From Bacteroidota bacterium (GTDB lineage: Bacteria > Bacteroidota > Bacteroidia > CAILMK01), in assembly GCA_036846145.1 (NCBI GenBank), contig DAIUCM010000005.1:11032-59813 (forward strand): a stretch of DNA of 48,782 nucleotides, given 5' to 3'. A model generated the notes under the pieces. The model saw nothing but the letters and a program-made list of their open reading frames with translations, searched no databases and was not told where the DNA came from. The translations under genes were made by a program, and so were the position numbers. This document shows positions 5,034 to 44,971 of this stretch, in pieces (position 1 is the stretch's first letter; each line of letters starts with the position of its first letter).

Positions 5034-5107
5034 TAATTACGAATTACGAATGAAAGCATTTTTGAGGATTTAGATATATGCAGATTATTTAGTTTGATAG
5101 AAATAAA

Positions 5108-5590
5108 ATGGAAATTCCTGTTGCAGAATGGTTAAATTCTGATGATAAACTTGTTTCGATTATTAGTAATATTAATTCAGGAGAAAAATCTTTTATAGAG
5201 CAAGCAACTGAGGCGTTTAACAAAATTTCTGAAGTCTATAAATTACCTAAATTTCCTGATGATATTACTAAAAATCTATTGAATGAATATCAAGAGAGAG
5301 GAGTTGAGAATCCACGATCTGTGTATGAAGAAATTGGAATTATAAGATTTTTACAACCAAATGACGATCCAAGAGGCATTGTATTGGCTGCATTATACAA
5401 TGTAAAAAACACGCAATATATTGATATTGATATTTGTGCAGCTGAGTTTTTCGGAAGTTTTGAAAATATTCCAGATGAATATGTTATCTATTATGAAGGC
5501 GAAGGTGCCGAATGCAAATTATGTTTCTTAAAAAAAGGTGAGCGCTGGGCAAAACCAGGCATAAAATATGCCTCGAAGATAATTTCATAA
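5108..5590 (+). CDS. Hypothetical protein, 160 aa, inside an AT-rich islet
   Basis: ORF with ATG start in a visibly AT-rich segment following the GH3 terminator region; no motif I recognise. Confidence 0.5.
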   Translation: MEIPVAEWLNSDDKLVSIISNINSGEKSFIEQATEAFNKISEVYKLPKFPDDITKNLLNEYQERGVENPRSVYEEIGIIRFLQPNDDPRGIVLAALYNVKNTQYIDIDICAAEFFGSFENIPDEYVIYYEGEGAECKLCFLKKGERWAKPGIKYASKIIS

Positions 5591-5695
5591 TATCCTTATT
5601 CGCGCAGCATTTTCCATATATACTTCCTCCCAAAAATATCTCAAATCTGATATTCTCCACCCTCATTCATTTGCAAAAATAGATTTTAATTAGAG

Positions 5696-6373
5696 ATGAA
5701 AGCAATTTCAAAGAAGTGGATACACGTTATAATTTTTTGCTTTGCATCTATTTCATGTAATTTTAATTCTAATGATTTGAACAAAGACTCTGCAAACTCT
5801 CCTAAAATTATAATATCTGAGTTAAGAAAAATTGGATTCTTTGAGAATTTTAGTTCTTTAACTGATGAAGAAGTTTTTGATACGCTACATCAACAAAGAA
5901 TAAATCATTATACTAAGATTTTTGGCAGACATTATGATCCGGGCATGAATCTTTCGGACTATGAAATTTTGATGTTAGATAACAAAAGAGTTGTAAGTGG
6001 AGATTATGAAGCAGATGTTGGAAAAGACAATGATGTTTATATAGCCATTCTGGAAACATTTTCTCGTGCTTCGGGTGGACTTTTTAATCCTGAAAATATA
6101 GTTGAGAAATGGGAAAGTGATGAAGGACCAGTTACCGTTTCATTTCATAACTATAATAATACCGTTGAATTTAAGCCTGAATATCAAGATGATTGGCTCT
6201 CTGGAAAAGTTTTCAGCATAATTAATGAACAGATGGCTATAAAAGGTAATGAAAAATTCTATTTGTTTTTAGGTAAAGATGAGTTCGGACTTGGACAAAA
6301 TTTTATTTATGTTAGAATGAGTGAAATCCAAAAAGATGCATTTCAAAAGCATTTCGGCTGGAAATTCTTATAG
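5696..6373 (+). CDS. Hypothetical lipoprotein, 225 aa
   Basis: N-terminal MKAISKKWIHVIIFCFASISC is a signal peptide with a lipobox-like Cys; the gene is AT-rich like its upstream neighbour. Confidence 0.55.
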   Translation: MKAISKKWIHVIIFCFASISCNFNSNDLNKDSANSPKIIISELRKIGFFENFSSLTDEEVFDTLHQQRINHYTKIFGRHYDPGMNLSDYEILMLDNKRVVSGDYEADVGKDNDVYIAILETFSRASGGLFNPENIVEKWESDEGPVTVSFHNYNNTVEFKPEYQDDWLSGKVFSIINEQMAIKGNEKFYLFLGKDEFGLGQNFIYVRMSEIQKDAFQKHFGWKFL

Positions 6374-7168
6374 TTCTTTTTGCATGTCTTATTTTGCTTT
6401 GCATATAAGTAATAGCCAAATAATGCTTTGAAAAGCAGTTGAAATAAGATTTAAATCCTCACCAGCGAAACAATATTTTCTACATGGTAGGTATGCGGAA
6501 ACATATCTACCGGCTGAACTTGGGTTACTTTGTAAGCATCCCAAACTTCGCTCAGCTCGGGATGAGTGATTTACTGATGCCCTATGGCCGTGTAGAATAA
6601 TACTTTTGTCCATGACCTTGATATACTTATCACCTTGCTGTAGTCGTGCCACTGGCAGGAGGTTAATTTTCCGTCTTTGAAACAGCGCTTTACATATAAT
6701 ATTGCCTGTAAGAGAACGTATTTAGTATAGATTAAATTACAATACTGAATTAACTGCAAGAAGCTAATTTACAGTAATTTGCTGCTGTATTATTTCTGAA
6801 CCAACATACAATACTTTTGCCTCAATACTTACCTGATAATACTTTTAGTTTAACAGCATAAAGCATTTTTTTAGAGGTACCTATATGGAAGCTGAATAAA
6901 AAACCGGTTAAAGAAGCACAATTGCTTTGAAAATAAATTGCTATTCACTAATTTTGCACCCTTAATTATTAGTATCATGGGAAAAGGAAGTAAAACTACG
7001 CGCAATATGAATGTTCTTATAACAAGAATACTTCGCAAGCGCCAGCTAAAGAAAGGTGCGGCTAAAACTTTTGCAAGGCCCGATAATATTGGTCCTGCAC
7101 CGAAGATCAGCGACAGCAATTCAGAAGCATAATTTAAGCTGCAGGTAAAGCTGCGGTACGTACGATTT

Positions 7169-7771: not shown

Positions 7772-7827
7772 AATAGCAAATAATATTCAATATACATGCC
7801 ATTAATAAGCAGCATTGTTTTACAGCC

Positions 7828-9480
7828 TTACAGGAAGCTGTAGCTTAAGCCGCCTGTAATTTGAAACCCGCGAGAAGGGTAAAAGTTCCAGAGCTGGTAT
7901 TGCGTGCCCAGTATGTTTTTGAGTTCGAGGTGCGCTTTTAAGCCTTTTGCATTGCCGCCAAAAGCATAGCTGATATTTGTATTAAGATCTATAATATTGC
8001 CCAGGTCGTAATCAGTCAATTTATAGGTATTGCTGGCCGAATCTTTAAGCCAGGTGCCGCCATAACGCTTGCCTGCGAAAAACAGGTCGGCGCCAATGCC
8101 AATTTTATTGGCGATGTTGTAACGACCGGTAATTACGGCATCAAAATTAGGCCTGTGGTAAGCTTTTGTTAAGGTAGATAAATTGTACGAATTTAAGTTT
8201 ACGGCCGCGCCAAGTATAAAATTTTCCATGATGGATAAACCTGCCTCGGCATGTACATTAAATACGTTTGTATTAGAATCGTACAGTACATTAAAGCGGC
8301 GCTTATCAACAGAATCGTTCAGGTAAAACGGCAGGTATTTGTAGTTTTTATACGCAAGCCCAACCGCAAAAGTTGATGTATTGCTGAAACTGCCTTTGGC
8401 GCCACCAAATAGGTTGAGCTTTTCATTGGTATTTTTTAACCTTATATCAGATGCTATAAAGTGGTTCTCGTAAGCAAACTGCCTGAAAGTATTTTCCTGT
8501 ATGTTACCGGTAATGCCGCCATAAAGCGTTAAGTATTTGGCAATTATATCAGCTTCCAGCTTTGCGTTCGGGTAAAAATGGAATGTTTCGTCCGATGCGG
8601 TTTTTATGCCAACATCTGCCCGGAAACCATTTACAATAAATTTATAACCGGCTGCTAGCCTCAATAAACCACGATCTATGGAAGTATCGGTTCTGTATTT
8701 CCAGTACTGGTAGCTTGCATCTGCATATATCCTGCTGCCGCGAAATGGTTCAACACCGGATGCGCCGATCCTAAAACCCGTTTCGCCAGTTTTATAGAAA
8801 TCGCTGAAATTATAAATGCCAAGATCTGCACCATACTGGAATTTTCCGGTATCGGCATTGGCACGTGCAAATTTTGTGTTGAAATAAATATCGTTAAAAC
8901 GCTGCTTTGTGCTGTCGGCATCGGTTATAGAATCTCCCGGAATCTGCGCATAGAACCTGTTTGCAAGCCTTTGGTAACCAAGGTTGCCGGTAATGCTATG
9001 GCCGGAGAAAACACGTTTGCCAAAAGCATCAATCATGTTTTCGGAAAAGCGCGAATCTTTAACCGGCCCGTTGCCCGAATGATGTTTGCCATGTAAAGTA
9101 AACAGGCTGTTTTTATTTCTTAAAGTATTGAAAATATATTCGCCATTCACATCAGCATAATTTCCAAACATAAGCTTTGCATAGTGATGATGCAGTTCTG
9201 ATACCGGTCCTTGTTTTAAGGTAGGCGCGCTTAGTTTGGCTTTAAAAGGCTCTGTATTGTAAATAAAAGCCGGTATTTTGTAGGTGATTTCCGGTTTGGC
9301 TGTATTAATGTTTTCCTGCACAGGCACAACGTCAATTTTTACGGCATCGCTAAGCTTTGGTTTGTAGCCCGTTACAATTATTACAGTTTCATCGCCCATG
9401 CTTTTTCTATCATTCTGTGCATAAGCTGCTGCAGAACTTAGTACAAGCAGCGCTGCTAAAGCATTTTTTGGGCCAATGAT
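7828..9480 (-). CDS. Outer-membrane beta-barrel protein with an uncertain start
   Basis: Long ORF ending ...GGLSYSFL, an aromatic C-terminal residue typical of OM beta-barrels, with alternating beta-strand-like composition. A signal-peptide-like segment KNALAALLVLSSAAAYAQ lies about 50 codons into the 7828..9621 ORF. No ATG/GTG/TTG is adjacent to it; the nearest candidates are ATC/ATT codons at 9480/9477. The upstream 9504-9558 carries a perfect 16-bp inverted repeat, so the real start is probably downstream of the ORF-track start. Confidence 0.6.
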   Translation of the reverse strand: MIGPKNALAALLVLSSAAAYAQNDRKSMGDETVIIVTGYKPKLSDAVKIDVVPVQENINTAKPEITYKIPAFIYNTEPFKAKLSAPTLKQGPVSELHHHYAKLMFGNYADVNGEYIFNTLRNKNSLFTLHGKHHSGNGPVKDSRFSENMIDAFGKRVFSGHSITGNLGYQRLANRFYAQIPGDSITDADSTKQRFNDIYFNTKFARANADTGKFQYGADLGIYNFSDFYKTGETGFRIGASGVEPFRGSRIYADASYQYWKYRTDTSIDRGLLRLAAGYKFIVNGFRADVGIKTASDETFHFYPNAKLEADIIAKYLTLYGGITGNIQENTFRQFAYENHFIASDIRLKNTNEKLNLFGGAKGSFSNTSTFAVGLAYKNYKYLPFYLNDSVDKRRFNVLYDSNTNVFNVHAEAGLSIMENFILGAAVNLNSYNLSTLTKAYHRPNFDAVITGRYNIANKIGIGADLFFAGKRYGGTWLKDSASNTYKLTDYDLGNIIDLNTNISYAFGGNAKGLKAHLELKNILGTQYQLWNFYPSRGFQITGGLSYSFL

Positions 9481-9641
9481 ATATGGAAAAATGTTGGAAT
9501 GTAGTAAAGTTGAAAAGTTATAAGGTTGCTTTGCACCGCAGTAAGTTTTCAACTTTTCAACTTTACAACCTTGTAACCTCATAAAAGCATTTTTTGCGTA
9601 TGTTATATATGGAAGCTTCATTTTTGGCTGAATTTTTAATG

Positions 9642-12668: not shown

Positions 12669-13051
12669 ATAAATATAACGAAGCTTATGCTATTGTATTA
12701 TTACTGGAAATGCTCAAAATTAAATTAATTCTCGTTAAGCAAAAGAGATAAGGATAAGTTGTTTGTTTGGCGCAAGTTTATCCACAAAATAAATGTAAGA
12801 ATGAAAGACTGAATGAATGAAAAAATACTTATTTACTTGTTAGTTTTGCTTTGCATTGTTACGCATTCATTCAGCTACTATTCGTTTGTTTTCAAAGTAT
12901 TTTATGGCATTTTGCTATATGGGAAATTTATATTCTTCTTTAGATGAAGCGTAGCAAATGGATTGCCAGTTTTACATGTTAGTTATTAAAATTGGATTAA
13001 TTTCCAGAGCGAGGGAAAACATATATAGCTTACGCAAAAATGATTTGAAAC

Positions 13052-14134
13052 CTAAATTCTGCTCACTTTGCTGCGCAACAAATGATCAGCCATTACCAGA
13101 GCAGCCATGGCCTCTACAATGGGTACAGCACGCGGAACAACACAAGGGTCGTGCCTTCCTTTCCCTTCCACCTCTGCTTTTTCGCCCTGCTGGTTTACGG
13201 TTTGCTGTTTTTGCGCAATCGTGGCAACCGGTTTAAAGGCTACTCTGAAATAAATATCCTCACCGTTGGAAATACCGCCTTGCACGCCACCGGAATTATT
13301 TGTTTTTGTGTGAATCTGATTTTCGGAAGTTGAAACAAATTCATCGTTATGTTCGCTTCCACGCATACTTGCAGCATCAAATCCACTGCCAATATCAAAA
13401 CCTTTTACCGCATTTATACTCAACATGGCTTTCCCAAGATCGGCATGTAATTTATCGAAAACAGGTTCACCTAATCCGGTTGGTGCATTCTGAATAACAC
13501 AAGTAATAATTCCACCCAAACTATCGCCTGCATCGCGCGCTTCTTCAATAGCCTGAAGCATTTTTTCGGCAGTTGGCATATGCGGGCAGCGAATAAGATT
13601 GGCCTCGGTTTGATTTAAATCTAATTCATTGTAAGGAATTTCGAGTTTTATTTTACCGACCTGGCTTACAAAAGCCTGTATTTTTATATTGGATTGCTTT
13701 AGCAGTAATTTGGCAATGGCGCCCGCTGCAACACGTGCCGCCGTTTCCCTGGCCGATGATCTTCCACCACCGCGATAATCACGGAAACCATATTTTTCAT
13801 CGTACGTAAAATCTGCGTGGCTCGGGCGATAAACATCCTTTAACTTATCATAATCCTGGCTTCGCTGATCTTTGTTCTGGATCAATAAAGTAATCGGAGC
13901 ACCTGTAGATATTTTTTCAAAAACGCCGGAAATGATCTCAACCGTATCATCTTCCTTACGCTGTGTTGTGATTTGAGATTGGCCGGGTTTTCTGCGAGAC
14001 ATTTCACTGGCGATAAAATCCTCATCAATTTCAAAACCAGCCGGGCAGCCGTCAATCACCACGCCAATGGCTTTTCCATGGCTTTCGCCGAAGGTTGTTA
14101 TGCGAAATAAAGTGCCAAATGAATTGCCTGCCAT
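13052..14134 (-). CDS. aroC: Chorismate synthase
   Basis: [33 protein letters not shown]...[19 protein letters not shown] are canonical AroC motifs. Confidence 0.92.
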
Positions 14135-14180
14135 TTTCTGAGTTTTAAAGCATTTTATGTGATTAAGTTATATGGATTTT

Positions 14181-14296: not shown

Positions 14297-14301
14297 AAAA
14301 G

Positions 14302-17275: not shown

Positions 17276-17366
17276 ACAGAATATATGGGCTGCTTTCGGT
17301 GGCGAATTTAAGGATAATTAAAGCATTTTTCAGGGTTTGGGGATATGGTTTTAGAATCTACCTTTG

Positions 17367-31815: not shown

Positions 31816-32045
31816 CGCGTCTCGGACGCTTGTAACAATTCTCAGATTCACCTCTAATTCCCAGGTCCCGTTTGGATACTTATTTTGTGCTCAAACCATT
31901 CTGTCTTCAATGATAAACCGTTAAAATTTTAAATTTATGGCATTCTGCATATATAAAGCTTCCGGAAAATGCTTTGTATCGAGGTTAGATTTATACTAAA
32001 ATCATATTTACCGAGTTATAAACAGGTAACCAAAACTTAAACAAT

Positions 32046-33525: not shown

Positions 33526-33993
33526 GAAGCAAATGCTTTGAAGCTATAACATTCAGTTTTTGCAAAATGTAAATTTACTATGGCAAAAAATATTTCCACC
33601 ACTTTCCCAAACATTTTAAAACATCATTTGTAATTCCTGTATATAATTTGGCGCCGATGTGCGTTGAACGAATGTAACCACTAACCAAAATATCCATATA
33701 AGGCAAAGCTGAAAAATGCTTTTACATTGCGAATCCGCAATCACGTGCCTTCTGTACCCAATCCCTTTAAGATTAAAAAATCTAAAAGCTGCAGCTGCAG
33801 GTTTTATGTCTGATCCGCGTTAAAAATTTGCGAATTGCAATTATTTTTCCGCAATTCCATATTTTTTGTATCTTTGATTTATTCAAATGACTTGAAGCAT
33901 TTTTACGCGAAAGCAGATATGCAATGAGCGATTTTGTGTAAATTTTTTCATAATTTGTAAACCTTAACCAGTCAACTATAAACTAAACATATT

Positions 33994-34743: not shown

Positions 34744-34978
34744 TTCATTCTAAAAGCATTTTTCACCAAAACTATATATGGAAGAATTGGAAAATTGAAA
34801 GATTGAAAAATTGAAAAATTACTTCGCGCCGCTGCATTTTTAAAAGCGCCCGATGTTCAATCCCGACTGTTTCGGGATGGAACATCTATTTTTGATATAA
34901 AAATAAAAATTGCTTCGCATCTCGGAAAATATTTACTCATGTACTCAATTACTCATTCACTCATTGTAAAAAACTAAC

Positions 34979-35615: not shown

Positions 35616-37784
35616 ATGCTTCAACAACTTTCACTGGCTACTGCAGCCATTTTCGCCTTCGTACTTGTGGGCGTGGTAGCATTAATTGCTAAATGCTACA
35701 AAAGAGCCGTTCAGGGCGAGGCGCTAATCCGCACCGGCTTCGGCGATGCCAAAGTTTCATTCAGCGGCATGCTTGTATTTCCCGTTATTCATAAAATGGA
35801 AATAATGGATATTTCCCTCAAAACGGTGATTATTGGCCGTACCGGGAAAGAAGGCCTTATTTGCATGGACAATATGCGTGCGGATATAAAAGTTACTTTC
35901 TTCGTGAAGGTGAATAAAACGCGCGAAGATGTTTTGCAGGTTGCGCAGGCCATTGGTTGCCGCCGTGCCAGCGACCAGGCTGCGCTGGAACATCTTTTTG
36001 ATGCGAAATTCTCGGAAGCCCTGAAAACTGTTGGTAAACGTTTCGATTTCGTGGAATTGTACAACAGCCGCGATAAATTCAAAGCGGAGATTTTACAAAT
36101 TATTGGCACAGACTTAAATGGTTATATTTTAGATGACTGCGCCATTGACTTCCTGGAGCAAACGCCTTTGGAATCGTTAAATGAGCGTAATATTTTGGAT
36201 GCGGAAGGTATCAAGAAAATTATTGAACTGACGGCAAAACAAAAAATACTTTCCAATCAAATAGAAAGAGAAAAGGAAAAAACCATTACGCAGCAAAACG
36301 TAATTGCTAAAGAAGCTGTGTTGGAACTCGAGCGTCAATTAGCGGAAACGGAAGAAAAGCAGAAACGCGAAATTGCATCAATCAAAGCACATGAGCAGGC
36401 GGAAATTATGATCGTTCAGCAGAATGAAAGATTAAAATCTGAGAAAGCGCGTATTACAACCGATGAAGAACTTCAGGTTGCGAATGAAAATAAATATCGC
36501 CAGATAATAGTTGCTGCTAAAAATAAAGAACGCACAGAAGCTGTTGAAACAGAACGTGTTGAAAAAGACCGCGCATTGGAAGCAACAGAGCGTGAGCGTT
36601 TGGTAAAATTAGCTGAAATTGCCAAAGAAAAAGCCATTGAAGAGCAGCGTAGAGACATACAGGAAGTAATCCGTGAGCGTGTTGCGGTGCAGAAATCTGT
36701 GGTTCAGGAAGAAGAAAAAATTAAAGATACCAGCGCATTCGCAGAGGCAGAACGTAAAAAAGCTGTCGCCATTAAAAATGCGGAAATGCTGGCGGAAGAA
36801 GCTTTGGTACAGCAGATTAAAGCTGCTGATGCCGGAAGACAAGCCGCAGAATTCGCAGCCAAACAAAAACTTATTGAAGCAGAAGCAGACCAGGTTACAG
36901 CCAGCAAACGTGCGGAAGCCATCAAGATTATGGCAGATGCAGAATCGGTTCACGCTGCAGCGCCTGGCTTAGCGGAAGCGCGCGTAATGGAAGCCAAAGC
37001 CATCGCCCTGGAAAAACAAGGTGAAGCGGAAGCAAATATCATAGAATTGAAAGCCATTGCTGATGCGAAAGGTATTAAACTCACCAGCACAGCACAAAGC
37101 GAAGCTTACCAGATGCAGGGCTTATTCGAAGCAAATGTGGCCAAAGAAAAAGGTATTGCAGATGCGAATGTAATTGAGCTGAAAGCTGTTGCAGATGAGA
37201 AAAAAGGCCTTGTAGAAGCAAAAGTGCTTGGCGAAAAAATGTTTGCCGAAGCGAAAGGTATCCAGGAAAAAGCAGATGCCATGAAGAAACTGGATGGCGT
37301 TGGTAAAGACCACGAAGAATTTAAGCTGCGCTTAGAGAAAGAAAGAGCCATAGAACTTGCTACTATAGATATACAATCACGCATTGCGGAAGCGCAGGCG
37401 CAGGTAATTTCCGAGGCATTGAAATCTGCGAAAATAGATATCGTTGGCGGTGAAACCATGTTTTTCGAGAAGATTATGGGCTCAATTACCAAAGGTAAAT
37501 CTATTGACAATATGGTGAAACGCAGCGATGTTTTGACCGAGGTGAAAAACCTTGTTCTGAGTCCAGTGGATGAAGCCGGCATCAAGCTGAACCTGAAGGA
37601 GCATATCACCAAATTCGGTTTAAGTATTGATGATATCAAGAACCTGAGCATCGCTACTTTAATCCTGAAAATGACACAACTCAGCGACAGTCCAGAAACA
37701 CGTAAAACGCTTCATGACTTGCTGGAATCCGCGAAAAAAGCTGGCATGGCGAATCATACAACGGATATTCTGGAGCTGGTGTAA
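35616..37784 (+). CDS. Flotillin-family (SPFH/band-7) protein, YqiK-like, 722 aa
   Basis: N-terminal TM segment plus an SPFH domain (AKCYKRAVQGEALIRTGFGDAKVSF...ISLKTVIIGRTGKEGLICMDNMRADIKVTFFVKVN). It is followed by a long A/E/K-rich coiled-coil typical of flotillins. The many ORFs inside 36.4-37.7 kb are antisense artefacts. Confidence 0.85.
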   Translation: MLQQLSLATAAIFAFVLVGVVALIAKCYKRAVQGEALIRTGFGDAKVSFSGMLVFPVIHKMEIMDISLKTVIIGRTGKEGLICMDNMRADIKVTFFVKVNKTREDVLQVAQAIGCRRASDQAALEHLFDAKFSEALKTVGKRFDFVELYNSRDKFKAEILQIIGTDLNGYILDDCAIDFLEQTPLESLNERNILDAEGIKKIIELTAKQKILSNQIEREKEKTITQQNVIAKEAVLELERQLAETEEKQKREIASIKAHEQAEIMIVQQNERLKSEKARITTDEELQVANENKYRQIIVAAKNKERTEAVETERVEKDRALEATERERLVKLAEIAKEKAIEEQRRDIQEVIRERVAVQKSVVQEEEKIKDTSAFAEAERKKAVAIKNAEMLAEEALVQQIKAADAGRQAAEFAAKQKLIEAEADQVTASKRAEAIKIMADAESVHAAAPGLAEARVMEAKAIALEKQGEAEANIIELKAIADAKGIKLTSTAQSEAYQMQGLFEANVAKEKGIADANVIELKAVADEKKGLVEAKVLGEKMFAEAKGIQEKADAMKKLDGVGKDHEEFKLRLEKERAIELATIDIQSRIAEAQAQVISEALKSAKIDIVGGETMFFEKIMGSITKGKSIDNMVKRSDVLTEVKNLVLSPVDEAGIKLNLKEHITKFGLSIDDIKNLSIATLILKMTQLSDSPETRKTLHDLLESAKKAGMANHTTDILELV

Positions 37785-37875
37785 AGCATTTTTTGAAGGG
37801 TTGAAATATGGAAGTTTTGAATGTGCAGATGTGAAGATATGCAAATGTGAAAATTGGTTTGTATAGTTCTGTCTG

Positions 37876-38053: not shown

Positions 38054-38088
38054 GCAATGAATCAACTTTTCAATCAATTCTAATTAAA

Positions 38089-38616: not shown

Positions 38617-38680
38617 AAAAATAGATTTCAACCCAATCCATTTTCCACACAACCCATATATGGAAATTTAACGCACACCC

Positions 38681-41600
38681 ATGACCACAACACCGGAAAC
38701 AAAGCAACCAACAGACCAGCTCGAGAAAGGCACGTATGAAGTAATTCGCAACAGGCTACTGAACCAGGGCATCGATTTGCAACAGCGCATTGGCAAACTG
38801 AACGATGCGCGCAAAAGCATTTTTGGTACGCTGGAGAGTAAGCTGGTGGCCACAGAACGTATTACCACGGAGCACAATTGCATCCCGATGGACATGATTC
38901 CCGTGGGCGATTTTTTCCTGTTTGGTTACAATGTACGTTTCGGCCTTAAGACAGAGATTGCGCTGGAGGATGTTTTTTCCATATATAAGAAGTCCGAAAA
39001 ATATTTTCAGCATGTTGGGCTTGAGCTGATTTCCGATGCGCGTTTTGCCGAAGATTTCAGGAATTTATACAAGTATTTCCGCGAAACAAGGTTTATAAAG
39101 TTTGCGCAGATCGGGCCGCATTTGTTCATGGTTTTCCAGGTTGGCAAAACGGTGAACGATGTGAAAACTTTTAAATGGACGCTCTCGCCAAAAGGTGAAC
39201 TGGTTTACCTCGATAATCGCAGCGACCATGAATTTACTTATCCGCAACAATACGAATTCAGCTGGAAACGCACTACACGCGAGCAGCATCGCGAAGGTTT
39301 GCATCCGCATATTTCTATTGAAGACAAGGTTTTTGTAGAGACTATTGGCGGCGACTTAACCATAAAAATTGAAGATAATACGAGCACCGGCAAGGGAATT
39401 TACAGCGAGGAAGTTGAGCTGAAAGACCAGACTTTGGATGACGGTGAGATCTATTATTCCATATTGGGAAATATTATTCTGCTGAAAATTCGCCCGTACA
39501 AAGAGAACAAATACCGCTACCTGGTTTACAACCAGAAATTGCAACAGGCGCTGCGGATTAACGCGCTGGAAGACAGTTGTATTTTGCTTCCTGAAGGCCA
39601 AGGAATTATTTTCAGCAACGGCTTTTACCTGCAAACCGGCGAGCACAAATTATTCGAAGGCAAGCAGGAGAAAATGATCTTCGAAAAGCGAATTGCTTCA
39701 CCCAATGGCGAGGATTTCCTGTTCGTTTATTTTAAGCCGGAAGACACTTCTTACCTGCTGCTTTTTTATAACCTCATTGAGCAAAAAATTACCAATACCA
39801 TTTTTTGCCACGGTTACAGTTTGTTCGAAAATGGCGAGCTGAGTTTTTTCCGTGCCGATACCGAACCGCAGAAATTTCACACCATTTCTACCTGGCAAAC
39901 TGCTTTCACCGGCCCGAATTATGTTTGGGATACACAAAGCGATTCGTATTTGTATAAGGTTGGAAATAAGGAAATTGTGAAGGCAATGGCCGATTGCCGC
40001 GCGCTGCACACTTTGCTCAACAAGGAAGATTCTTACCTGAACCTATATATAGATCTTTCGAAAAAAGCTTCGGAAATTCTGGATGCGTATCATTGGCTCG
40101 ATAAACCCGATGCGTACGAGTTGATTCAGCCCTTGTCCACCATTCGCGAGGCAGCTTCTTCGGCCATTAATGAGTTCGAAAAAGTTAGCGCCATACGAAA
40201 AAACACTGCGCAGGAAGTTGAAAAAGTAACCGAAAAATTCAGTAAACTAAGTAAAATTGTAAAGCATGATGCAGACAATATTACAGAATTTGTTCAGCAT
40301 TTGTCTGATTTGCGTGTGTTACGTGGCGAGCTGATTTCAGCCAAAAAACTTCGCTATGCAGATGTAAAATCTTTGCATGATTTTGAAGTCCAAACTGAAG
40401 TTTTAAGTGATGATGTTTCACAAAGATGCGTTACTTTTTTACTCGGGGAAAAAGCGCTTTCGCCATACGAGGAACAGGTAAAAACGCTGAGCCAATCTAT
40501 TCCTGCGCTGACCAAAACTACCGATGCAGATGCGGTTGAAGAGCAGGCGAAAAAATTATCAGCCGAACTGGAAATGCTCATAGAAACGGTGAGCAACCTG
40601 AAGATAAAAGACCCGACAGAAACAACGCGGATTATTGATGCTATTTCCGCAATTTATTCCGGCTTTAACCAGATTCGCGCGGCACTAAAAAACAAGCGCC
40701 AAAACCTGGCAGGAGAGGAGGGAAAAGCTGAATTTAATGCGCAGTTAAAGCTTGTCGATCAGTCGGTTATAAACTTTCTGGATGTTTGTGATAAGCCCGA
40801 AAAATGCGATCAGTACCTGAATAAACTGATGGTGATGCTGGAAGAAATGGAAGGCAAATTTTCTGCTTTCGATGAATTCGTATCACTTATCACTGAAAAG
40901 CGCGAAGAGGTTTATTCCGCTTTTGATGCACGAAAAATTCAGCTTACCGAAGCGCAGCAAAAACGCGCTGCGAGTTTAATGGCTTCTGCAGAACGGATTC
41001 TGAATGGCGTGAAAAACCGTTCCCTGAGTTTCAGTGAAGCGGCAGATGTAAACGGTTATTTCGCTGCGGATGCGATGGTTTCGAAGGTTCGCGATATTGC
41101 AAGTCAGCTGAAAGAAATTGGTGAAAACCTGAAAGCTGATGAGCTGGAAGGCAAACTGAAAACGCTGAATGAAGATGCGCTGCGCCAGTTGAAAGACAAG
41201 AAGGAAATGTACCTTTCCGGCGGGAATGTCATCAAGATCGGCAAGCACCAGTTCTCTGTAAACACGCAGCCGATCGATCTTTCCATCATCGCCAAAGAAG
41301 ACAAACTTTTCTTCCATTTAAGCGGCACAAAATTCTACGAAGAAATTAAGGATGAATCGCTTCAAAGCGCTAAAAATCTTTGGGAGCAACATCTTGTTTC
41401 TGAAAATAATGATGTTTATCGGTCTGAATATTTAGCATGGAAAATCTTCGCGGCAACCAAAGGAAACCGCATACTTTCAATAGCAGAAAATGAAAAAGTC
41501 AATATAAGCGAACTGCAAAAAATGCTTTCGGCAGATTTACTATTGTACGTGCAGAAATGCATGGCGCCGCTGTACAATGAAGGTTATATTAAAGGTGTTC

Positions 41601-43606
41601 ATGATGCAGATGCGGCGAAGATTTTAGAAGTTTTGGTTGCGACGGATTCAGGTGCGGATTTGCTGCGTTACAACAGTAATTCACGGGCTTGTGCGAGTTT
41701 ATACTGGCATCATTTTGTGGCAGATGAACGCAAACAATTGCTGCAGCACAGGCTCAAAGGAGTTGGTATAATTCTACAGGTTTTCCCGAATTCAAAACAG
41801 TTTCAACAGCTTGTAAACGAAATTGATGCGGATATTAAGAACTTCATCAAAGAAACAGAATTATTTGAGGTTGAAATCGCTGATGAAGCAGCAGAATACT
41901 TGTTCCATGAGATCAGCCGCGATGATGAATTTATTGTGGATGCGCAAGCCGTTCACCTGCAAACCATGTTCACCGATTATCTTACGCAGCACAATTTTTA
42001 CCACGATTTTGAGAAATCTGTAAAGGCGCTTGATGGCAACTGGACCGCTAAATACCGCTTGCTGAGAAAATGGATCGCCGCATATATAGAATTCGCAGAA
42101 AATGCTTCAAGTCATGGATTTAGAGATGAAATAGCAGCGTTGCTACTGCATCACAATTCGCATACAGAAAAAATTCATGCGGTTGCCTTGCAGCAGGAAA
42201 TTGATGGAATGAACGGAAATCATCATTTAATTCAAAACGGAAAATACCAGTTCGATTTCCACCAATTCAATAAAAAATTACTGGCTTTCCATAAAGAATC
42301 TGTTCCTGCATTTATAGAATTTCAGCATCGTAAAAAAGCCCTTACGGACCAGTTCCGCAAGCAGTTAAGATTGGAAGAATTCCAGCCGAAAGTGCTTACA
42401 TCTTTTGTGCGAAACAAGCTTCTGGATAATGCCTATTTGCCATTTATCGGCGATAATCTCGCGAAGCAATTGGGAACAGTTGGCGATACAAAACTCAGCG
42501 ACAGAATGGGAATGTTACTGTTGATCTCGCCGCCGGGTTACGGTAAAACCACATTGATGGAATACTTGTGCAGCCGATTGGGATTGGTTTTCATGAAGAT
42601 AAACGGACCAGCTATTGGCCACAATGTAATGTCTGTTGATCCGAAAGAAACCGGAAATGCTGCTGCTGCAGAAGAACTGGAAAAGCTGAATCTTGCGCTG
42701 GAAATGGGTGATAATATGATGTTGTATCTTGATGATATTCAGCATTGTAATCCGGAGTTTTTACAGAAATTTATTTCGCTTTGTGATGCGCAACGGAAAA
42801 TGGAAGGTGTTTACAAAGGCAGAAGCAAAACCTATGATCTGAAAGGCAGGAAAGTTTGCGTGGTGATGGCCGGAAATCCATATACAGAAAGCGGCGAGAA
42901 ATTCCGTATTCCGGATATGTTGGCGAACCGTGCGGATATTTATAATCTGGGTGATGTTGTTGGCAGCGCGAACCATTTTTTCACATTGTCCTATATAGAA
43001 AATTGCCTTAGCGTAAATCCTGTGCTCAATAAATTAGCCACAAAAAGCCAGGCTGATATTTATTCTTTCCTGAAAATGGCCGAGAATGAAGGGGCAGAAG
43101 GTTTGAATTTTGAAGCCTCATATTCCGCTGCAGAAGTACAGGAAATTGTAAGCGTTTTACGCAAGTTAACGAAAATTCGCGATGTGATTTTCCGTGTGAA
43201 CCAGGAATATATTCATTCTGCTGCGCAAGCTGAAGAATATCGTACTGAGCCTGCTTTCCGCTTACAGGGTTCTTACCGCGATATGAGCAAGATTGCCGTT
43301 AAAGTTTTGCCTGTTTTAAATGATGCTGAATTGGATGAATTGCTGCTTTCACATTATACCAACGAATCGCAAACCTTAACTAGCGGCGCTGAAGCTAATC
43401 TGCTGAAGTTTAAGGAAATGGTTGGCTGGATGAATGAAAAAGATAAACAGCGCTGGGAAGACATTAAAACAACTTTCGTGAAGAATAACAAGTATAAATC
43501 GCTTGGTGAAAGTTCTGTTAATCATGTTATTACGCATATGGAGAATATGACGGAAGGGATTAATTCGATTGCGCAGGTTTTGGCGAAAGCGGTTGAAGGG
43601 AAGTAA
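38681..43606 (+). CDS. Very large (1641 aa) protein with a C-terminal AAA+ ATPase domain (AAA_5/MoxR-McrB-like) and an N-terminal roughly 1250 aa of mostly alpha/coiled-coil region of unknown function
   Basis: Walker A LLISPPGYGKTTLMEYL, Walker B MMLYLDDIQHCNPE and sensor/arginine-finger region VCVVMAGNPYTE...RIPDMLANRADIYNLG are placed around residues 1290-1450. The ORF is uninterrupted. Confidence 0.8.
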   Translation: MTTTPETKQPTDQLEKGTYEVIRNRLLNQGIDLQQRIGKLNDARKSIFGTLESKLVATERITTEHNCIPMDMIPVGDFFLFGYNVRFGLKTEIALEDVFSIYKKSEKYFQHVGLELISDARFAEDFRNLYKYFRETRFIKFAQIGPHLFMVFQVGKTVNDVKTFKWTLSPKGELVYLDNRSDHEFTYPQQYEFSWKRTTREQHREGLHPHISIEDKVFVETIGGDLTIKIEDNTSTGKGIYSEEVELKDQTLDDGEIYYSILGNIILLKIRPYKENKYRYLVYNQKLQQALRINALEDSCILLPEGQGIIFSNGFYLQTGEHKLFEGKQEKMIFEKRIASPNGEDFLFVYFKPEDTSYLLLFYNLIEQKITNTIFCHGYSLFENGELSFFRADTEPQKFHTISTWQTAFTGPNYVWDTQSDSYLYKVGNKEIVKAMADCRALHTLLNKEDSYLNLYIDLSKKASEILDAYHWLDKPDAYELIQPLSTIREAASSAINEFEKVSAIRKNTAQEVEKVTEKFSKLSKIVKHDADNITEFVQHLSDLRVLRGELISAKKLRYADVKSLHDFEVQTEVLSDDVSQRCVTFLLGEKALSPYEEQVKTLSQSIPALTKTTDADAVEEQAKKLSAELEMLIETVSNLKIKDPTETTRIIDAISAIYSGFNQIRAALKNKRQNLAGEEGKAEFNAQLKLVDQSVINFLDVCDKPEKCDQYLNKLMVMLEEMEGKFSAFDEFVSLITEKREEVYSAFDARKIQLTEAQQKRAASLMASAERILNGVKNRSLSFSEAADVNGYFAADAMVSKVRDIASQLKEIGENLKADELEGKLKTLNEDALRQLKDKKEMYLSGGNVIKIGKHQFSVNTQPIDLSIIAKEDKLFFHLSGTKFYEEIKDESLQSAKNLWEQHLVSENNDVYRSEYLAWKIFAATKGNRILSIAENEKVNISELQKMLSADLLLYVQKCMAPLYNEGYIKGVHDADAAKILEVLVATDSGADLLRYNSNSRACASLYWHHFVADERKQLLQHRLKGVGIILQVFPNSKQFQQLVNEIDADIKNFIKETELFEVEIADEAAEYLFHEISRDDEFIVDAQAVHLQTMFTDYLTQHNFYHDFEKSVKALDGNWTAKYRLLRKWIAAYIEFAENASSHGFRDEIAALLLHHNSHTEKIHAVALQQEIDGMNGNHHLIQNGKYQFDFHQFNKKLLAFHKESVPAFIEFQHRKKALTDQFRKQLRLEEFQPKVLTSFVRNKLLDNAYLPFIGDNLAKQLGTVGDTKLSDRMGMLLLISPPGYGKTTLMEYLCSRLGLVFMKINGPAIGHNVMSVDPKETGNAAAAEELEKLNLALEMGDNMMLYLDDIQHCNPEFLQKFISLCDAQRKMEGVYKGRSKTYDLKGRKVCVVMAGNPYTESGEKFRIPDMLANRADIYNLGDVVGSANHFFTLSYIENCLSVNPVLNKLATKSQADIYSFLKMAENEGAEGLNFEASYSAAEVQEIVSVLRKLTKIRDVIFRVNQEYIHSAAQAEEYRTEPAFRLQGSYRDMSKIAVKVLPVLNDAELDELLLSHYTNESQTLTSGAEANLLKFKEMVGWMNEKDKQRWEDIKTTFVKNNKYKSLGESSVNHVITHMENMTEGINSIAQVLAKAVEGK

Positions 43607-43644
43607 GGTTTTTTGTCTATTGTGATTGAGCTATGAATGTTTGG

Positions 43645-44274
43645 TTTCGTACTTTTGTCTTAACACAAAAGTACCAAAAAGTCAAGGCTGTAAAGTCTTT
43701 GCTAAAAATCAACTAAAAGCATTTACCCACCCGTAAAAGGAGCCGCCAGTCTGTTTTGTGCATATTGGTTGCGTTGCATTGGCTCGCCTTTTACTTTGTA
43801 TGTTTGATTTACTTATCTTTAACTTTCTGCGTTTCAACTTACTAATACAATTATGCTTTTAGCTGATTTTCTTAACGCAAAGGCTTTAAGGCCAGTCCTA
43901 TAATCAGTGAGTAATTAACAAGGGTCAATGAAGTATTTTTCATTAAATAACCATCTGGAAAATTATTCACTCATTTACTCAATCACAAATTTGCTCATTG
44001 TATTTTGGGATCGGCATCTAAACTATTTGCGTGAAGAAAATGGTTGGAAAACATTTACTCTAATGGTGAATTGTAACTGGCAAATGTTAAAATAATGCTT
44101 AAAGAACTTACACAGCAACAGGCGAGCCAACGCAGTTTTAAGAAAAAGCACAAATTGATCTGGCGGCTCCTGTTGCGGGTGGAATCATGTTTTAAAACCA
44201 TTTTTAGCAAATTGTTTTAAGCCTTGACTTTTTGGTACTTTTGTATTAAGACAAAAGTACGAAAGCAAATAGTT
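43645..44274. repeat. 630-bp foldback-type element with about 45-bp near-perfect terminal inverted repeats; imperfect palindromic similarity extends about 130 bp inward
   Basis: TTTCGTACTTTTGTCTTAACACAAAAGTACCAAAAAGTCAAGGCT (43645-43689) and AGCCTTGACTTTTTGGTACTTTTGTATTAAGACAAAAGTACGAAA (44230-44274) are reverse complements with one mismatch. Each arm contains GTACTTTTGT-N6-ACAAAAGTAC. Matches continue inward (CCACCCG..AGGAGCCGCCAG..TTTGTGC on both sides), and the unit has no ORF. Confidence 0.55.
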
Positions 44275-44311
44275 GAAAAGCAATGTGTTCATTTTCAAAT
44301 AATTAAAAAAT

Positions 44312-44971
44312 TTAATCCTCCAAAGGCATTTTTTTGTAATCGCTTATATGGGGAATATCTGCAGAATTATCTTTCTCATTCATCCAATCGGGTTTTTCGG
44401 GCGGTTGCGGGCCGTGTTTTCGGTATAAAAAAGCTACCAAGCTTCCGGTAATGGCGCCAAACAAATGTGCTTCCCAGCTAATGCCTTCTTCACCGGGTAA
44501 AATCCCCCAAAGCATACTGCCATAAAACGCAATGATCAGGAGCGAGATGGCCATAAAAGAGCGGATTTTTTTGATTATTCCACTGAAAAACAGGAAGAAA
44601 GCGAAACCGTAAATAAGTCCGCTTGCACCGATGTGGTAGGTTCCGCCACGCGCGAAGATCCATATAAGCAAGCCTGTAAAAATGCTTATTAGGCTTATTA
44701 CCTGCCAGGCTTTCTGCCTGTAGAAATACAAAATGCCTATGCTTAAAACAAGTACCGGGCTGGTGTTAGATAGCAAATGCTTTAAATCGCCATGTATAAA
44801 TGGTGAAGAAATTATGCCTTTTAAGCCACTAATCTCGCGAGGCAAAATTCCCAGTTTGTACAGATCGAAGCCAAAAGTAATTTCCGCCCATTTTATCAGC
44901 CATATTACTATAACGAATAAAAAAGGCGGAATAAAACTTTTTATAATTGAAGTATTTTCCGGCATCTGCAT
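44312..44971 (-). CDS. Rhomboid-family intramembrane serine protease
   Basis: Multi-TM protein with the GxSG active-site motif (YHIGASGLIYGF) and a downstream conserved His region (LWGILPGEEGISWEAHLFGAITG). Confidence 0.8.
   Translation of the reverse strand: MQMPENTSIIKSFIPPFLFVIVIWLIKWAEITFGFDLYKLGILPREISGLKGIISSPFIHGDLKHLLSNTSPVLVLSIGILYFYRQKAWQVISLISIFTGLLIWIFARGGTYHIGASGLIYGFAFFLFFSGIIKKIRSFMAISLLIIAFYGSMLWGILPGEEGISWEAHLFGAITGSLVAFLYRKHGPQPPEKPDWMNEKDNSADIPHISDYKKMPLED

Follow-up and report, generated by a model that had tools for sequence, protein, structure and literature searches.

An abundant bipartite DNA word in a small group of uncultured Bacteroidia resembles uptake sequences more than promoters

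What is the two-part word that recurs along this stretch of Bacteroidia DNA, and what might read it? The whole stretch of 48,782 nucleotides, here called the window, was analyzed. The motif is a 29-base bipartite word, AAAGCATTTTT-N11-TATATGG, which occurred in eight exact copies (Table 1). With up to two mismatches allowed, 27 copies were found as compared to 0.02 expected after shuffling; with up to three, 39 as compared to 0.27. The excess over chance was about 1000-fold. When spacers from N5 to N18 were scanned, N11 yielded 27 matches and every other length 0 to 2, and a PWM revealed that the 11 bases between the half-sites are nearly free. Strand usage was even. The observation is real and stronger than first described: the preliminary description had reported at least 13 copies on both strands at a fixed 11-nt spacing, and about three times as many were obtained. 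Every copy that it listed was present, with small corrections to three of them, as the copy at 14147-14175, given as N12, is an N11 copy with one mismatch, the one given as 44313-44341 lies at 44323-44351, and the one given as 31948 starts at 31947. It had also placed variants directly on two start codons, which is correct for the UvrD-like gene; the variant at cphB ends just before the GTG and is off the start codon.

Table 1. Copies of the motif in the window. L099, L100, L115 and L116 denote loci of relatives; a number after them locates the copy there.
Position	Strand	Form	Mismatches	Setting	Relatives and further features
1228..1256	-	motif	2	divergent intergenic region
2344..2372	+	motif	2	convergent region; PFK stop 54 nt away
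5053..5081	+	motif	1	GH3 stop 19 nt before, next ATG 26 nt after
6401..6429	-	motif	2	27 nt past stop of 5696-6373
6860..6888	+	motif	exact	overlaps stop of 6871-7203(-)
9458..9486	+	motif	exact	left flank of 38-nt-arm hairpin (9493-9577)
9584..9612	+	motif	exact	right flank of hairpin 9493-9577; TPR-gene stop 29 nt away
12894..12922	+	motif	2	between aroC stop and TPR-gene start	orthologous copy at L100 1901, spacer and flanks diverged
13019..13046	-	N10 variant	2	immediately past aroC stop	full N11 copy in L100 (1358)
13555..13583	+	motif	3	within aroC, antisense	1-2 mismatches in relatives
14147..14175	+	motif	1	12 nt upstream of aroC ATG, antisense	kept in L100 (231); missing in L099, which has aroA directly next to aroC
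14467..14495	-	motif	1	within aroA, sense; encodes SIFPQDEIW	exact motif in L099 (9808)
14929..14957	+	motif	3	within aroA, antisense	kept in L099 9346
16486..16514	+	motif	3	within aroB, antisense	kept in L099 7789
17320..17348	+	motif	1	GIY-YIG stop 18 nt, cmk start 44 nt; antisense to both
18312..18340	+	motif	3	within UvrD-like gene, antisense	kept in L099 5521
19563..19591	-	motif	2	within UvrD-like gene, sense	identical in L099 4270
21007..21034	-	N10 variant	2	UvrD start called at its ATG	includes canonical TATTTTTG box
21093..21121	+	motif	1	divergent UvrD/vsr region; vsr ATG 20 nt after
26652..26680	-	motif	exact	convergent region; Flavo-1-like element 58 nt away
28429..28457	-	motif	exact	divergent region
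29759..29787	+	motif	1	convergent region; 12 nt past 47-nt-arm hairpin
30921..30949	-	weak motif	3	intergenic 30821-30999
31549..31577	-	motif	1	divergent region
31947..31975	-	motif	2	divergent region shared with 31549..31577
32720..32748	-	motif	2	within alpha/beta-hydrolase gene, sense; encodes TIFxxxxIW
33511..33539	-	motif	2	overlaps hydrolase start codon
33694..33722	-	motif	exact	divergent region
33894..33922	+	weak motif	3	divergent region shared with 33694..33722
34753..34781	+	motif	exact	9 nt past pspA stop	precedes terminator-like hairpin (about 100 nt on) and TATTTTTG box of next gene (34887)
37783..37811	+	motif	1	first bases complete TAA stop of 35616-37784
38635..38663	+	weak motif	3	intergenic	kept in L115 19852
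38979..39007	-	motif	2	within 1641-aa DUF3686/AAA gene, antisense	kept in L115 19509
40043..40071	-	motif	3	within DUF3686/AAA gene, antisense	kept in L115 18445
41500..41528	-	motif	1	within DUF3686/AAA gene, antisense; encodes NISELQKML	exact motif in L115 (16988)
42080..42108	-	motif	3	within DUF3686/AAA gene, antisense	kept in L115 16408
42970..42998	+	motif	3	within DUF3686/AAA gene, sense	kept in L115 15518
44323..44351	+	motif	1	last 13 codons of rhomboid gene, antisense; encodes PHISDYKKMPL	kept in L115 and L116
44660..44688	-	motif	1	within rhomboid gene, sense; encodes SIFTGLLIW	kept in L115 and L116, spacer diverged
47761..47789	+	weak motif	3	cphA/cphB divergent region	kept in L115 9867 and L116 9935
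47819..47847	+	weak motif (N11)	3	1 nt before cphB GTG	includes TACTTTTG box

At a density of about one per 1-2 kb, the motif is dispersed genome-wide in a small group of uncultured Bacteroidia. It recurred at similar density in four loci of three close relatives, including territory outside the window, as the suggestion of a genome-wide motif had implied. Copies with up to two mismatches numbered 56 in 104 kb as compared to one in 1008 kb of related genomes; the motif is essentially absent from this comparison set of 1.008 Mb from 80 more distant relatives. Copies were balanced between the strands (40 plus/42 minus). Its edges drift within the group, position 1 being G instead of A in L115 and position 29 being T instead of G in L116. 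Between relatives, specified positions diverged by 5.0%, spacers by 20.8%, and flanks by 27.8%, a comparison that is somewhat biased because it used sites recognizable in both genomes.

A miniature mobile repeat of the REP, BIME, or MITE type, transposing into intergenic DNA, would account for the high abundance of the motif and its mostly extragenic location. In this lineage, the DNA between genes is full of other repeats, and the aroA-aroC spacer varies among relatives through inserted elements. However, different copies had neither common flanks, except at orthologous loci, nor common spacers; fold energies were not better than those of shuffles (z -0.6 to +0.3), with no palindrome or hairpin; and the coding copies came without motif-length insertions and arose by substitution. 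The REP and BIME elements of Enterobacteria and Pseudomonas are likewise short, very abundant, mostly extragenic, often located near 3′ ends and variable in their flanks, and BIMEs bind IHF and gyrase. REPs, however, are by definition extragenic and imperfect palindromes, are mobilized as hairpins by RAYT transposases and do not occur in coding DNA, whereas the motif lacks dyad symmetry and is present there. Unshared flanks and spacers, missing hairpins, and an origin by substitution largely refute a mobile repeat, which we regard as extremely improbable. We read the motif as a recognition word in duplex DNA, and as neither an RNA nor a mobile element.

Copies were called coding or intergenic by the position of the motif midpoint. 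Motif density in the window was 2.66 per kb in intergenic and 0.21 per kb in coding DNA, a difference of about 12-fold. The motif had been described as almost exclusively intergenic; it is indeed not equally frequent in genes, but 9 of the 27 copies with up to two mismatches and 16 of the 39 with up to three are coding, and its density in coding sequence is still about 30 times that of the 1 Mb of related genomes. Sites were present in 16 of 24 intergenic regions (11.3 ± 1.5 expected, P = 0.0017), an excess that is partly due to other repeats filling long regions. Most intergenic regions of at least 75 nt carried at least one copy, whether convergent, divergent, or tandem. Within tandem regions, the median distance was 36 nt from the upstream stop codon as compared to 160 nt from the next start, and 11 of 15 copies were closer to the stop. 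Across the whole window, the copies were spaced only slightly more evenly than at random (CV 0.88), and the CV was 0.77 (P about 0.05) without the defense island described below. Native genes lacking copies include the TPR gene and cphA.

The orientation of the motif relative to gene starts and ends was random, as had been noted before: the AAAGC end pointed toward a 3′ end 16 times and toward a 5′ end in 20 cases, with 17 and 19 cases, respectively, for the TATGG end. This result bears on a promoter, in which a -35-like AAAGCA and a -10-like TATATG, separated by 16 nt, would be recognized by a sigma factor, either an alternative one or a second housekeeping-like one, giving rise to small RNAs and pervasive antisense RNAs as well as mRNAs. 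The geometry is sigma-70-like, with a strictly kept distance of about 21-23 bp between the two elements and a TATA-rich downstream element. Furthermore, an ATG follows a few copies at 20-26 nt (the one at 5108 after copy 5053; that of vsr after copy 21093), a 108-aa signal-peptide gene of L100 starts at the ATG of a motif copy, and a small RNA is conceivable at 34753 because of the terminator-like hairpin that follows. Yet co-directional copies mostly lie 165-277 nt from the ATG, and the intervening DNA of at least one such region contains both a terminator-like hairpin and a canonical TAnnTTTG box. Separate canonical TAnnTTTG boxes occur near several gene starts, one of them kept in a relative; the sequence downstream of orthologous copies is not conserved; many copies are coding, 9 of about 14 being antisense, and were built by protein-changing substitutions; and the distant relatives share the Bacteroidota transcription machinery, yet are without the motif. 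Like the Bacteroidota sigma-A promoter (-33 TTG, -7 TAnnTTTG), the motif is bipartite, intergenic, and AT-rich, and its weak variants at 21007 and 47819 happen to include a true TAnnTTTG box. In sequence and spacing, however, it differs from this promoter, confirming the earlier remark that it does not match TTG-N19-TAnnTTTG, and it fits none of the experimentally mapped Bacteroidota classes, namely TAnnTTTG (sigma-A), TAnnTTGY, sigma-54, and the ECF CGT box (PMC9723704). A promoter is therefore quite unlikely in our judgment. On this evidence, and because copies in tandem regions are closer to the upstream stop codon than to the next start, two proposals of the preliminary description found no support: an alternative-sigma or regulator site, and a promoter for antisense or small RNAs.

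The origin of the copies within genes was deduced from relatives. Orthologous outgroup DNA fits 6-12 of the 18 specified positions of coding copies as compared to 15-18 in the lineage; about 16 coding copies thus arose by amino-acid-changing substitutions. In chorismate synthase (aroC), a conserved RCPD has become RCPH within a copy that encodes PH(I/M)xTA(E/K)KML; the outgroup proteins read PD(A/S)ETAxxMI at this place. The aroA copy is located in a variable loop without a large insertion. Unrelated proteins share peptides that the motif encodes: SIFxxxxIW is common to aroA and the rhomboid gene, with TIFxxxxIW in the hydrolase, and PHI...KKM(L/P) is common to aroC and the rhomboid gene, with NIS...QKML in the DUF3686 gene. 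All 13 coding copies of the window that lie in regions covered by relatives were retained there.

The main rival to the reading that we favor is an architectural or boundary site, bound once per gene boundary by an abundant sequence-specific nucleoid protein. This protein, IHF- or HU-like or a partner of gyrase or topoisomerase as at E. coli BIME/REP, would insulate neighboring transcription units and bend the DNA both at the TATA step and at the T tract, with orientation being irrelevant. The site is asymmetric, its two patches are two helical turns apart, and it includes a flexible TATAT as well as a T5-6 tract, as would be expected. A boundary role is also consistent with the occupation of most regions of at least 75 nt in all gene arrangements, with the closeness to 3′ ends, and with about one copy per intergenic region whose position and both half-sites are kept between relatives despite divergent spacers and flanks. 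However, weak selection per site poorly explains the amino-acid-changing coding copies, one of them at a conserved residue, and leaves unexplained why a roughly 500-fold excess appears abruptly in one small lineage and is missing from the 1 Mb of relatives. The motif also differs from the IHF consensus, WATCAANNNNTTR. We consider such a site unlikely.

Our tentative preference is a self-DNA tag, read by a protein and accumulated by mutation and recombination. It was rated most likely because sequence-biased uptake of DNA by naturally competent cells, as with the USS and DUS described below, is the best-known process giving exactly such a signature; the protein reader, the drive, and DNA uptake as the process are what we infer. 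One protein or complex would read two patches, (A/G)AAGCATTTTT and TATATG(G), which would lie on the same face of the helix because their centers are 21 bp or two helical turns apart, the 11 bases between them being free. Copies would arise in place by point substitution and not by copying and insertion, homologous recombination would keep or spread them, and molecular drive or genome-wide selection would favor DNA bearing the motif. As a consequence, copies would gather where they are cheapest, that is, just past stop codons, in free intergenic DNA, and in tolerant protein stretches. Newly imported DNA would be without the motif, and the tag would be recognized while DNA is taken up or at an equivalent self/non-self step. 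A low-GC (0.31) vsr-dcm-GmrSD defense island, missing from the relative L099, contained none of the 28 AAGCATTTT copies; this is a single island, and zero copies there correspond to a P of roughly 0.1 given the native coding density.

The motif behaves like the uptake sequences of Haemophilus and Neisseria more than like a promoter. The DUS of Neisseriaceae, a 12-bp word (ATGCCGTCTGAA) with several dialects, is a self-DNA tag found about once per kb; the motif resembles it in density, in under-representation in ORFs, and in the drifting edge positions, which recall lineage dialects. It differs in that the DUS is short, contiguous, and mostly arranged as inverted pairs in terminators. The DUS is read by ComP, a minor pilin of the type IV pilus. 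The USS of Pasteurellaceae spans about 30 bp with a AAGTGCGGT core and two helically phased T tracts, and such a composite has been described for Haemophilus (PMC3458573). Uptake sequences are in 200-1000-fold excess, occur in both orientations at even spacing, and spread through mutation together with recombination; they are under-represented in coding DNA, rare in transferred genes, and located at poorly conserved residues (PMC2817400). The motif likewise is non-palindromic, family-restricted, and in similar excess in both orientations, its flanks are unshared, consistent with the same mode of spread, and it is rare in transferred genes and composite with a T tract. Furthermore, genes tolerate it at variable residues, the peptides it encodes are enriched, and it occasionally forms terminator-like inverted pairs, here a head-to-head pair in L115 (456/499) with a 13-bp stem and A and T tracts at its flanks. 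Unlike the USS with one core and weak T tracts, however, the motif has two strongly specified blocks and a free 11-nt spacer, and its host is an uncultured Bacteroidia lineage. Against the uptake reading, the intergenic bias is much stronger than that of USS and DUS, which have 35-65% of their copies in ORFs, dyad pairs are scarce (one among about 36 intergenic copies), the spacing is only weakly even, and some native genes are without copies. A literature search returned no uptake sequence reported for Bacteroidota.

The huge excess, the presence of coding as well as intergenic copies, the lineage restriction, and the imported island without the motif would also suit a self marker read by a recombination or defense machine instead of an uptake apparatus, either a Chi-like signal taming a helicase-nuclease or a tag exempting own DNA from defense. 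Cyanobacterial HIP1 (GCGATCGC), Chi, and KOPS are lineage-specific over-represented words in coding and non-coding DNA as well. These words, however, are contiguous and 5-8 nt long, HIP1 being palindromic and Chi and KOPS few-fold over-represented and skewed with the direction of replication, whereas the motif is 29 bp long, bipartite, asymmetric, about 1000-fold over-represented, and free of strand skew. To our knowledge, HIP1 has no settled function, and we know of no bipartite self tag read by a recombination or defense machine; we hold this alternative to be very unlikely. Apart from the motif, the intergenic DNA of the lineage was found to be rich in other repeats, namely hairpin elements, a 630-bp MITE-like element, and a Flavo-1-like element.

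The exact bipartite word AAAGCATTTTT-N11-TATATGG occurs in eight copies in the 48,782-bp window. With up to two mismatches, 27 copies were detected as compared to 0.02 expected from dinucleotide-preserving shuffles; with up to three mismatches, the numbers were 39 and 0.27. The motif is non-palindromic and its excess over chance is ~1000-fold. A spacing of 11 nt gave 27 matches and every other spacing from N5 to N18 only 0 to 2; the fixed spacing noticed in the preliminary description was thus confirmed. All copies listed there were found in the window with small coordinate corrections only: the copy at 14147, described as N12, has N11 spacing and one mismatch, and the copy listed at 44313 is located at 44323.

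A position matrix was built on 56 copies of the lineage and yielded the consensus (A/G)AAGCATTTTT-N11-TATATGG. Here, (A/G)AAGCATTTTT is followed by a weak Y-R-G-S, a free stretch and (C)(A)TATATG(G)(A); no conservation was detected in these copies beyond the 29-32 motif positions. Edge positions drift among relatives, with G at position 1 in one relative locus (L115) and T at position 29 in another (L116).

The window is a metagenome contig (ENA ERZ1669374 NODE_216) with T9SS and GldM markers and DUF4294 among its gene content. Copies were assigned to intergenic or coding DNA by the motif midpoint on the window gene map. At up to two mismatches, 18 copies were intergenic and nine coding; at up to three mismatches, 23 and 16. 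Motif density amounted to 2.66 per kb between genes but 0.21 per kb within coding sequences, hence the motif is strongly yet not exclusively intergenic. The earlier statement that occurrences are almost all intergenic therefore holds as a bias, but not as exclusivity, with 16 of 39 copies lying in coding DNA. A good copy was present in 16 of 24 intergenic regions of at least 60 nt as compared to 11.3 ± 1.5 at random (P = 0.0017), a test weakened by other repeats that occupy part of the long regions. For the window as a whole, the coefficient of variation of all gaps was 0.88, or 0.77 without the low-GC vsr-dcm-GmrSD island (P about 0.05), and spacing is only marginally more even than random.

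Orientation was tallied for 36 intergenic copies from five loci, the window and four loci of close relatives. The AAAGC end pointed toward a gene 3' end in 16 cases and toward a 5' end in 20; for the TATGG end, the numbers were 17 and 19. Copies were found in convergent, divergent and tandem regions alike. Motif orientation is random relative to genes, as the preliminary description had suggested, and bears no relation to transcription units. In tandem regions (n = 15), the upstream stop codon was a median of 36 nt away and the next start codon a median of 160 nt, in either orientation. Both the random orientation and the location nearer to stop than to start codons argue against the motif being a promoter, a reading we consider improbable.

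The Bacteroidota sigma-A promoter consists of a -7 box TAnnTTTG and a -33 TTG about 19 nt upstream. As noticed earlier for the spacing, the motif does not resemble it: the consensus has no conserved upstream element, and the motif shows neither a fixed orientation nor a short distance to a downstream start. Canonical TAnnTTTG boxes were located apart from the motif, close to several gene starts (3440, 12715, 28223, 33869, 34887 and 47823), and the box of the TPR gene was kept in a relative. At 34753, a stop codon is followed by the motif, a simple-sequence stretch, a terminator-like hairpin, a TATTTTTG box and the ATG; in this arrangement, the motif copy does not serve as promoter for the following gene. 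Sigma-54 promoters carry GG-N10-GC (-24/-12) and ECF promoters AAC...CGT boxes; read directly, the motif consensus matched neither. Nor does it fit any class in the experimental promoter map of a flavobacterium, namely sigma-A, TAnnTTGY, sigma-54 and ECF (PMC9723704).

Several further links to transcription or translation were rejected. Simple scans for sigma-70 promoters and intrinsic terminators were neither enriched nor coincident with the motif. Most copies have no hairpin preceding GCATTTTT, as a terminator T tract would require. On the reverse strand, AAAAATGCTTT(G) taken as a -7 box has the sequence ATGCTTTG instead of TAnnTTTG, and no more than 9 of 23 copies carry the final G. Sites of a UP-element or activator type would keep a constant distance to sigma-A boxes, but this distance was 134 and 206 nt in the two regions compared; the small ORFs starting at the motif ATG were short and unrelated.

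A structured RNA was also rejected, as no Rfam family reached its gathering score in the window; the only nearby match, below threshold and at permissive E-values, was a separate Flavo-1-like element. For eight copies, folding did not exceed that of shuffled sequences (z-scores between -0.6 and +0.3), and the two motif halves are not complementary. Motif-masked 100-nt flanks of 38 copies had nothing in common except overlapping neighbours, orthologous loci and one unrelated 80-nt Flavo-1-like element, and spacers of different copies are unrelated. In the absence of common flanks, common spacers and structure, the copies therefore did not descend from a single inserted unit. REP, BIME and MITE elements are characterized by dyad symmetry, hairpins, terminal inverted repeats or copies related by descent; the motif has none of these and is not strictly extragenic. 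A mobile repeat is thus highly improbable, the more so as the coding copies arose by substitution.

Three close relatives were identified by protein searches in independent assemblies, providing four loci (Table). Their copies extend to territory outside the window, including DUF885, H+-PPase and a second cphB-cphA pair, so that the motif recurs beyond the window at comparable density, contrary to the outcome named as refuting in the preliminary description. Over the five lineage loci, 40 copies are on the plus and 42 on the minus strand. With up to two mismatches, 56 copies were present in 104 kb of the lineage as compared to one in 1008 kb of relatives. This outgroup set comprised eighty metagenome loci with aroC of 60-75% identity (1.008 Mb in total) and contained 13 matches at up to three mismatches. 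Two loci around CphA of 73% identity contained no motif copies; not being syntenic, the 73%-CphA locus provided no outgroup for the rhomboid and DUF3686 copies. The idea of a separate hyper-abundant word in every related lineage was not supported, as no non-trivial 10-mer stood out in about 60 outgroup loci of at least 9 kb. An exact-pattern scan of genome contigs returned at least 16 single chance matches in unrelated taxa among the matches listed. In viral contigs, 11 single-copy matches were found in AT-rich phages, and no phage carried multiple copies. The lineage is uncultured and known from metagenome assemblies only.

Table. Relative loci and features in the window and its relatives
Feature	Sequence	Position	Description
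Relative locus L100	ENA ERZ1761215		aroC 92% identical; 5 copies (≤3 mismatches) in 5 kb
Relative locus L099	NCBI MAG GCA_054315415.1		aroC 89% identical; 10 copies (≤3 mismatches) in 11 kb
Relative locus L116	NCBI MAG GCA_054315415.1		CphA 85% identical; 11 copies (≤3 mismatches) in 16.8 kb
Relative locus L115	Logan ERR14173775		CphA 86% identical; 17 copies (≤3 mismatches) in 22.6 kb
Low-GC island	window	21142-26532	vsr-dcm-GmrSD-AAA_15/DUF3696
Alpha/beta-hydrolase gene	window	32509-33525	motif copies at 32720 and 33511
aroA-aroC junction	window	14135-14301	two hairpin elements
aroA-aroC junction	L100	1-271	unrelated 195-nt hairpin element (4-197)
aroA-aroC junction	L099	10001	genes abut
Extra signal-peptide gene	L100	1495-1821	108 aa; between aroC and TPR gene; no counterpart in window
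Motif copy at start of this gene	L100	1470-1498	motif ATG is the start codon
MITE-like element	window	43640-44270	about 630 bp; between DUF3686 and rhomboid genes; imperfect terminal inverted repeats of about 110 nt
Ends of MITE-like element	window	43645-43678; 44231-44264	34-bp palindromes with back-to-back TACTTTTG (sigma-A -7-like) boxes
Flavo-1-like element (RF01705)	window	26519-26593 (+)	31.7 bits, under gathering score 42
Flavo-1-like element	L099	2529-2600	same 80-nt sequence, 95% identical; unrelated locus
Other intergenic repeat families	window	17766-17893; 37890-38050; 14181-14290; 28243-28305; 9490-9577	
DnaA-box-like TGTGGATAA	window	about 12778-12786 (-)	about 110 nt upstream of TPR-gene start
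-7 box TAATTTTG	window	12715-12722	conserved; downstream of DnaA-box-like block
GIY-YIG nuclease gene	window	17367-17666	stand-alone, 99 aa; between UvrD-like and cmk
Cyanophycinase/cyanophycin-synthetase genes	L115	4903-12619	two adjacent, divergently arranged pairs
Cyanophycinase/cyanophycin-synthetase genes	L116	4915-12688	two adjacent, divergently arranged pairs

The coding copies were compared with orthologous DNA. At four coding sites, 6-12 of the 18 specified positions are matched in the outgroups as compared to 15-18 in the lineage, and the coding copies contain no insertion of motif length; judged by this comparison, they were made by substitution. In aroA, the peptide QSIFPQDEIW specified by the copy at 14467 belongs to a loop that is variable among homologues and has no large insertion. 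The antisense copy in aroC (13555) encodes RCPH(I/M)xTA(E/K)KML; since all outgroups examined have RCPD...MI at this site, a conserved Asp has been replaced. Similar peptides recur in unrelated proteins: SIFxxxxIW is common to aroA and rhomboid, with TIFxxxxIW in the hydrolase, and PHI...KKM(L/P) occurs in aroC and the rhomboid C-terminus, with NISELQKML in the DUF3686 protein. Recurrence of motif-encoded peptides together with the origin by substitution suggests that selection or drive acts on DNA and not on protein.

Sequence of relatives covers the sites of 13 window coding copies, and every one of these copies was retained there. In 21 orthologous pairs, for which some ascertainment bias applies, relatives differed at 5.0% of the specified positions, 20.8% of the spacer and 27.8% of the 15-nt flanks (Fisher P = 6e-9 for specified positions versus spacer and 2e-21 versus flanks). 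Two intergenic copies were kept in L100 despite diverged spacer and surroundings: one is located 12 nt upstream of aroC, its flank on the aroC side being conserved as well, the other about 225 nt upstream of the TPR gene. Some intergenic copies turn over with gene content. The 17320 copy is missing in L099, where a different gene precedes cmk, as is the aroA-aroC copy, the genes being abutted there. The aroA-aroC junction differs among three relatives; the motif copy with its 12-nt leader beside aroC is kept wherever an aroA-aroC spacer exists.

The GC content of the island is 0.31 as compared to 0.40-0.43 elsewhere, and the island is not present at the corresponding L099 locus, which carries a DEAD/ResIII/SWI2-SNF2 helicase gene instead. 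It forms a five-gene operon encoding Vsr, a C5 cytosine methylase, a GmrSD-type restriction enzyme, an AAA_15/AAA_21/DUF3696 ATPase and a 308-aa protein without assigned function, and by its sequence looks like a horizontally acquired defence island. These 5.4 kb contain none of the 39 motif copies and none of the 28 AAGCATTTT half-sites, which for one island corresponds to P roughly 0.1 at native coding density. Unlike the island, the alpha/beta-hydrolase gene carries motif copies. Its nearest homologues are only 41-45% identical, many from Firmicutes, with no close relatives in the homologue search, which suggests an older horizontal acquisition.

Taken together, the excess, the geometry, the lack of common flanks and of structure, orientation, the preference of copies for free DNA shortly after stop codons, the coding copies, conservation of the specified positions, lineage restriction and absence from the one island point to a word in duplex DNA, with two-turn geometry and a free spacer, that would be read by a protein and would have accumulated through mutation plus recombination. 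The main rival is a boundary or architectural site that an abundant DNA-binding protein would occupy in either orientation; it would fit the frequency of about one copy per intergenic region. The coding copies and the sudden lineage-specific excess are less well explained by such a site, and we regard it as unlikely. Another self marker, for example a Chi-like signal, appears quite improbable. Polar words of the Chi/KOPS type show a strand skew tied to replication direction; the window count of 22 plus and 17 minus copies refers to the contig strand, not to replication direction.

Judged by its genomic signature alone, the motif may tentatively be assigned the function of an uptake-type self-DNA tag; we rate this as the most likely single explanation because the feature set corresponds to the published list of properties shared by uptake sequences (PMC2817400). 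Like the uptake signal sequence of Pasteurellaceae (USS) and the DNA uptake sequence of Neisseriaceae (DUS), the motif is a non-palindromic word in hundreds- to thousand-fold excess, present in similar numbers in both orientations, with an apparent origin by mutation and recombination instead of copy-and-insert. It is likewise under-represented in coding DNA, located at poorly conserved residues as in aroA, the aroC Asp change being an exception, and associated with enriched motif peptides. Further traits of USS and DUS are a spacing more even than random, rarity in horizontally acquired genes and a receptor with preferential uptake of the word by competent cells; on the first two, the window gave the gap statistics, the one-island P value and the motif-bearing hydrolase gene described above. 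The Haemophilus USS, too, is a composite of roughly 30 bp, in which T tracts in helical phase are included (PMC3458573). The motif differs from USS, DUS, REP, HIP1 and Chi by its two strong blocks, between which 11 nt are free. Whereas USS and DUS frequently form inverted pairs serving as terminators, the approximately 36 intergenic copies included a single head-to-head pair (L115 456/499); its 13-bp stem, flanked by A and T tracts, resembles the terminator-forming pairs. The rare dyad pairs, an intergenic bias much stronger than that of known uptake sequences and the weak overall evenness of spacing point against the uptake reading.

The view that bacteria can direct genetic exchange preferentially toward their own kind relies mainly on self-DNA tags. 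To our knowledge, hyper-abundant tags are experimentally established in just two proteobacterial families, and we know of no uptake sequence or comparable hyper-abundant bipartite word in Bacteroidota. Literature searches for the half-site strings returned nothing relevant, and those for Bacteroidota/Bacteroidetes no such sequence or word. Possibly, although this is rather doubtful, the motif is the first known DNA uptake (self-recognition) signal outside Proteobacteria, with two blocks, a free 11-nt spacer and a candidate receptor in uncultured Bacteroidia. An uptake signal would imply sequence-biased natural transformation in environmental Bacteroidota and a drive so strong that even conserved residues in housekeeping enzymes are rewritten. 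As a third, independent self-tag case with different architecture, it would render the phenomenon more general and provide a sequence bait for finding the receptor as well as a simple marker by which the lineage and the DNA it recently imported could be tracked in metagenomes. If the motif is instead a boundary or architectural site, it would stand out as unusually sharp and countable, allowing direct tests of gene-boundary insulation in a phylum with non-textbook transcription signals. Whatever its function, the motif is a new variant among lineage-specific genomic signature words. Either way, it distorts protein sequences, gives rise to spurious small ORFs and provides start as well as stop codons; annotation of these genomes must therefore account for it. 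The ability to supply start codons follows from the 108-aa gene of L100, and the 37783 copy supplies a stop codon.

Other repeats often adjoin motif copies in no fixed arrangement. They include long GGGATTCCGGGTCAAGCCCGGAATGACG hairpins, GGATTGAAATCC...CTACAA...GGGAC hairpin elements and hairpins with simple-sequence arms (e.g. GTAAAGTTGAAAAGTT). In both occurrences of the Flavo-1-like element, the opposite strand carries a motif copy at a distance of 54-58 nt. The element may be a DNA-level repeat, since Flavo-1 matches of F. psychrophilum were reported as sense, antisense or untranscribed (PMC9723704). At the position of the MITE-like element, L115 and L116 have different content. The DnaA-box-like sequence is part of a block, ATTTTGTGGATAAAC, that is conserved in window and L100 alike. 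L099 carries an Ion_trans_2 channel gene at the position of the GIY-YIG gene, and the window end falls inside the first cyanophycinase/cyanophycin-synthetase pair.
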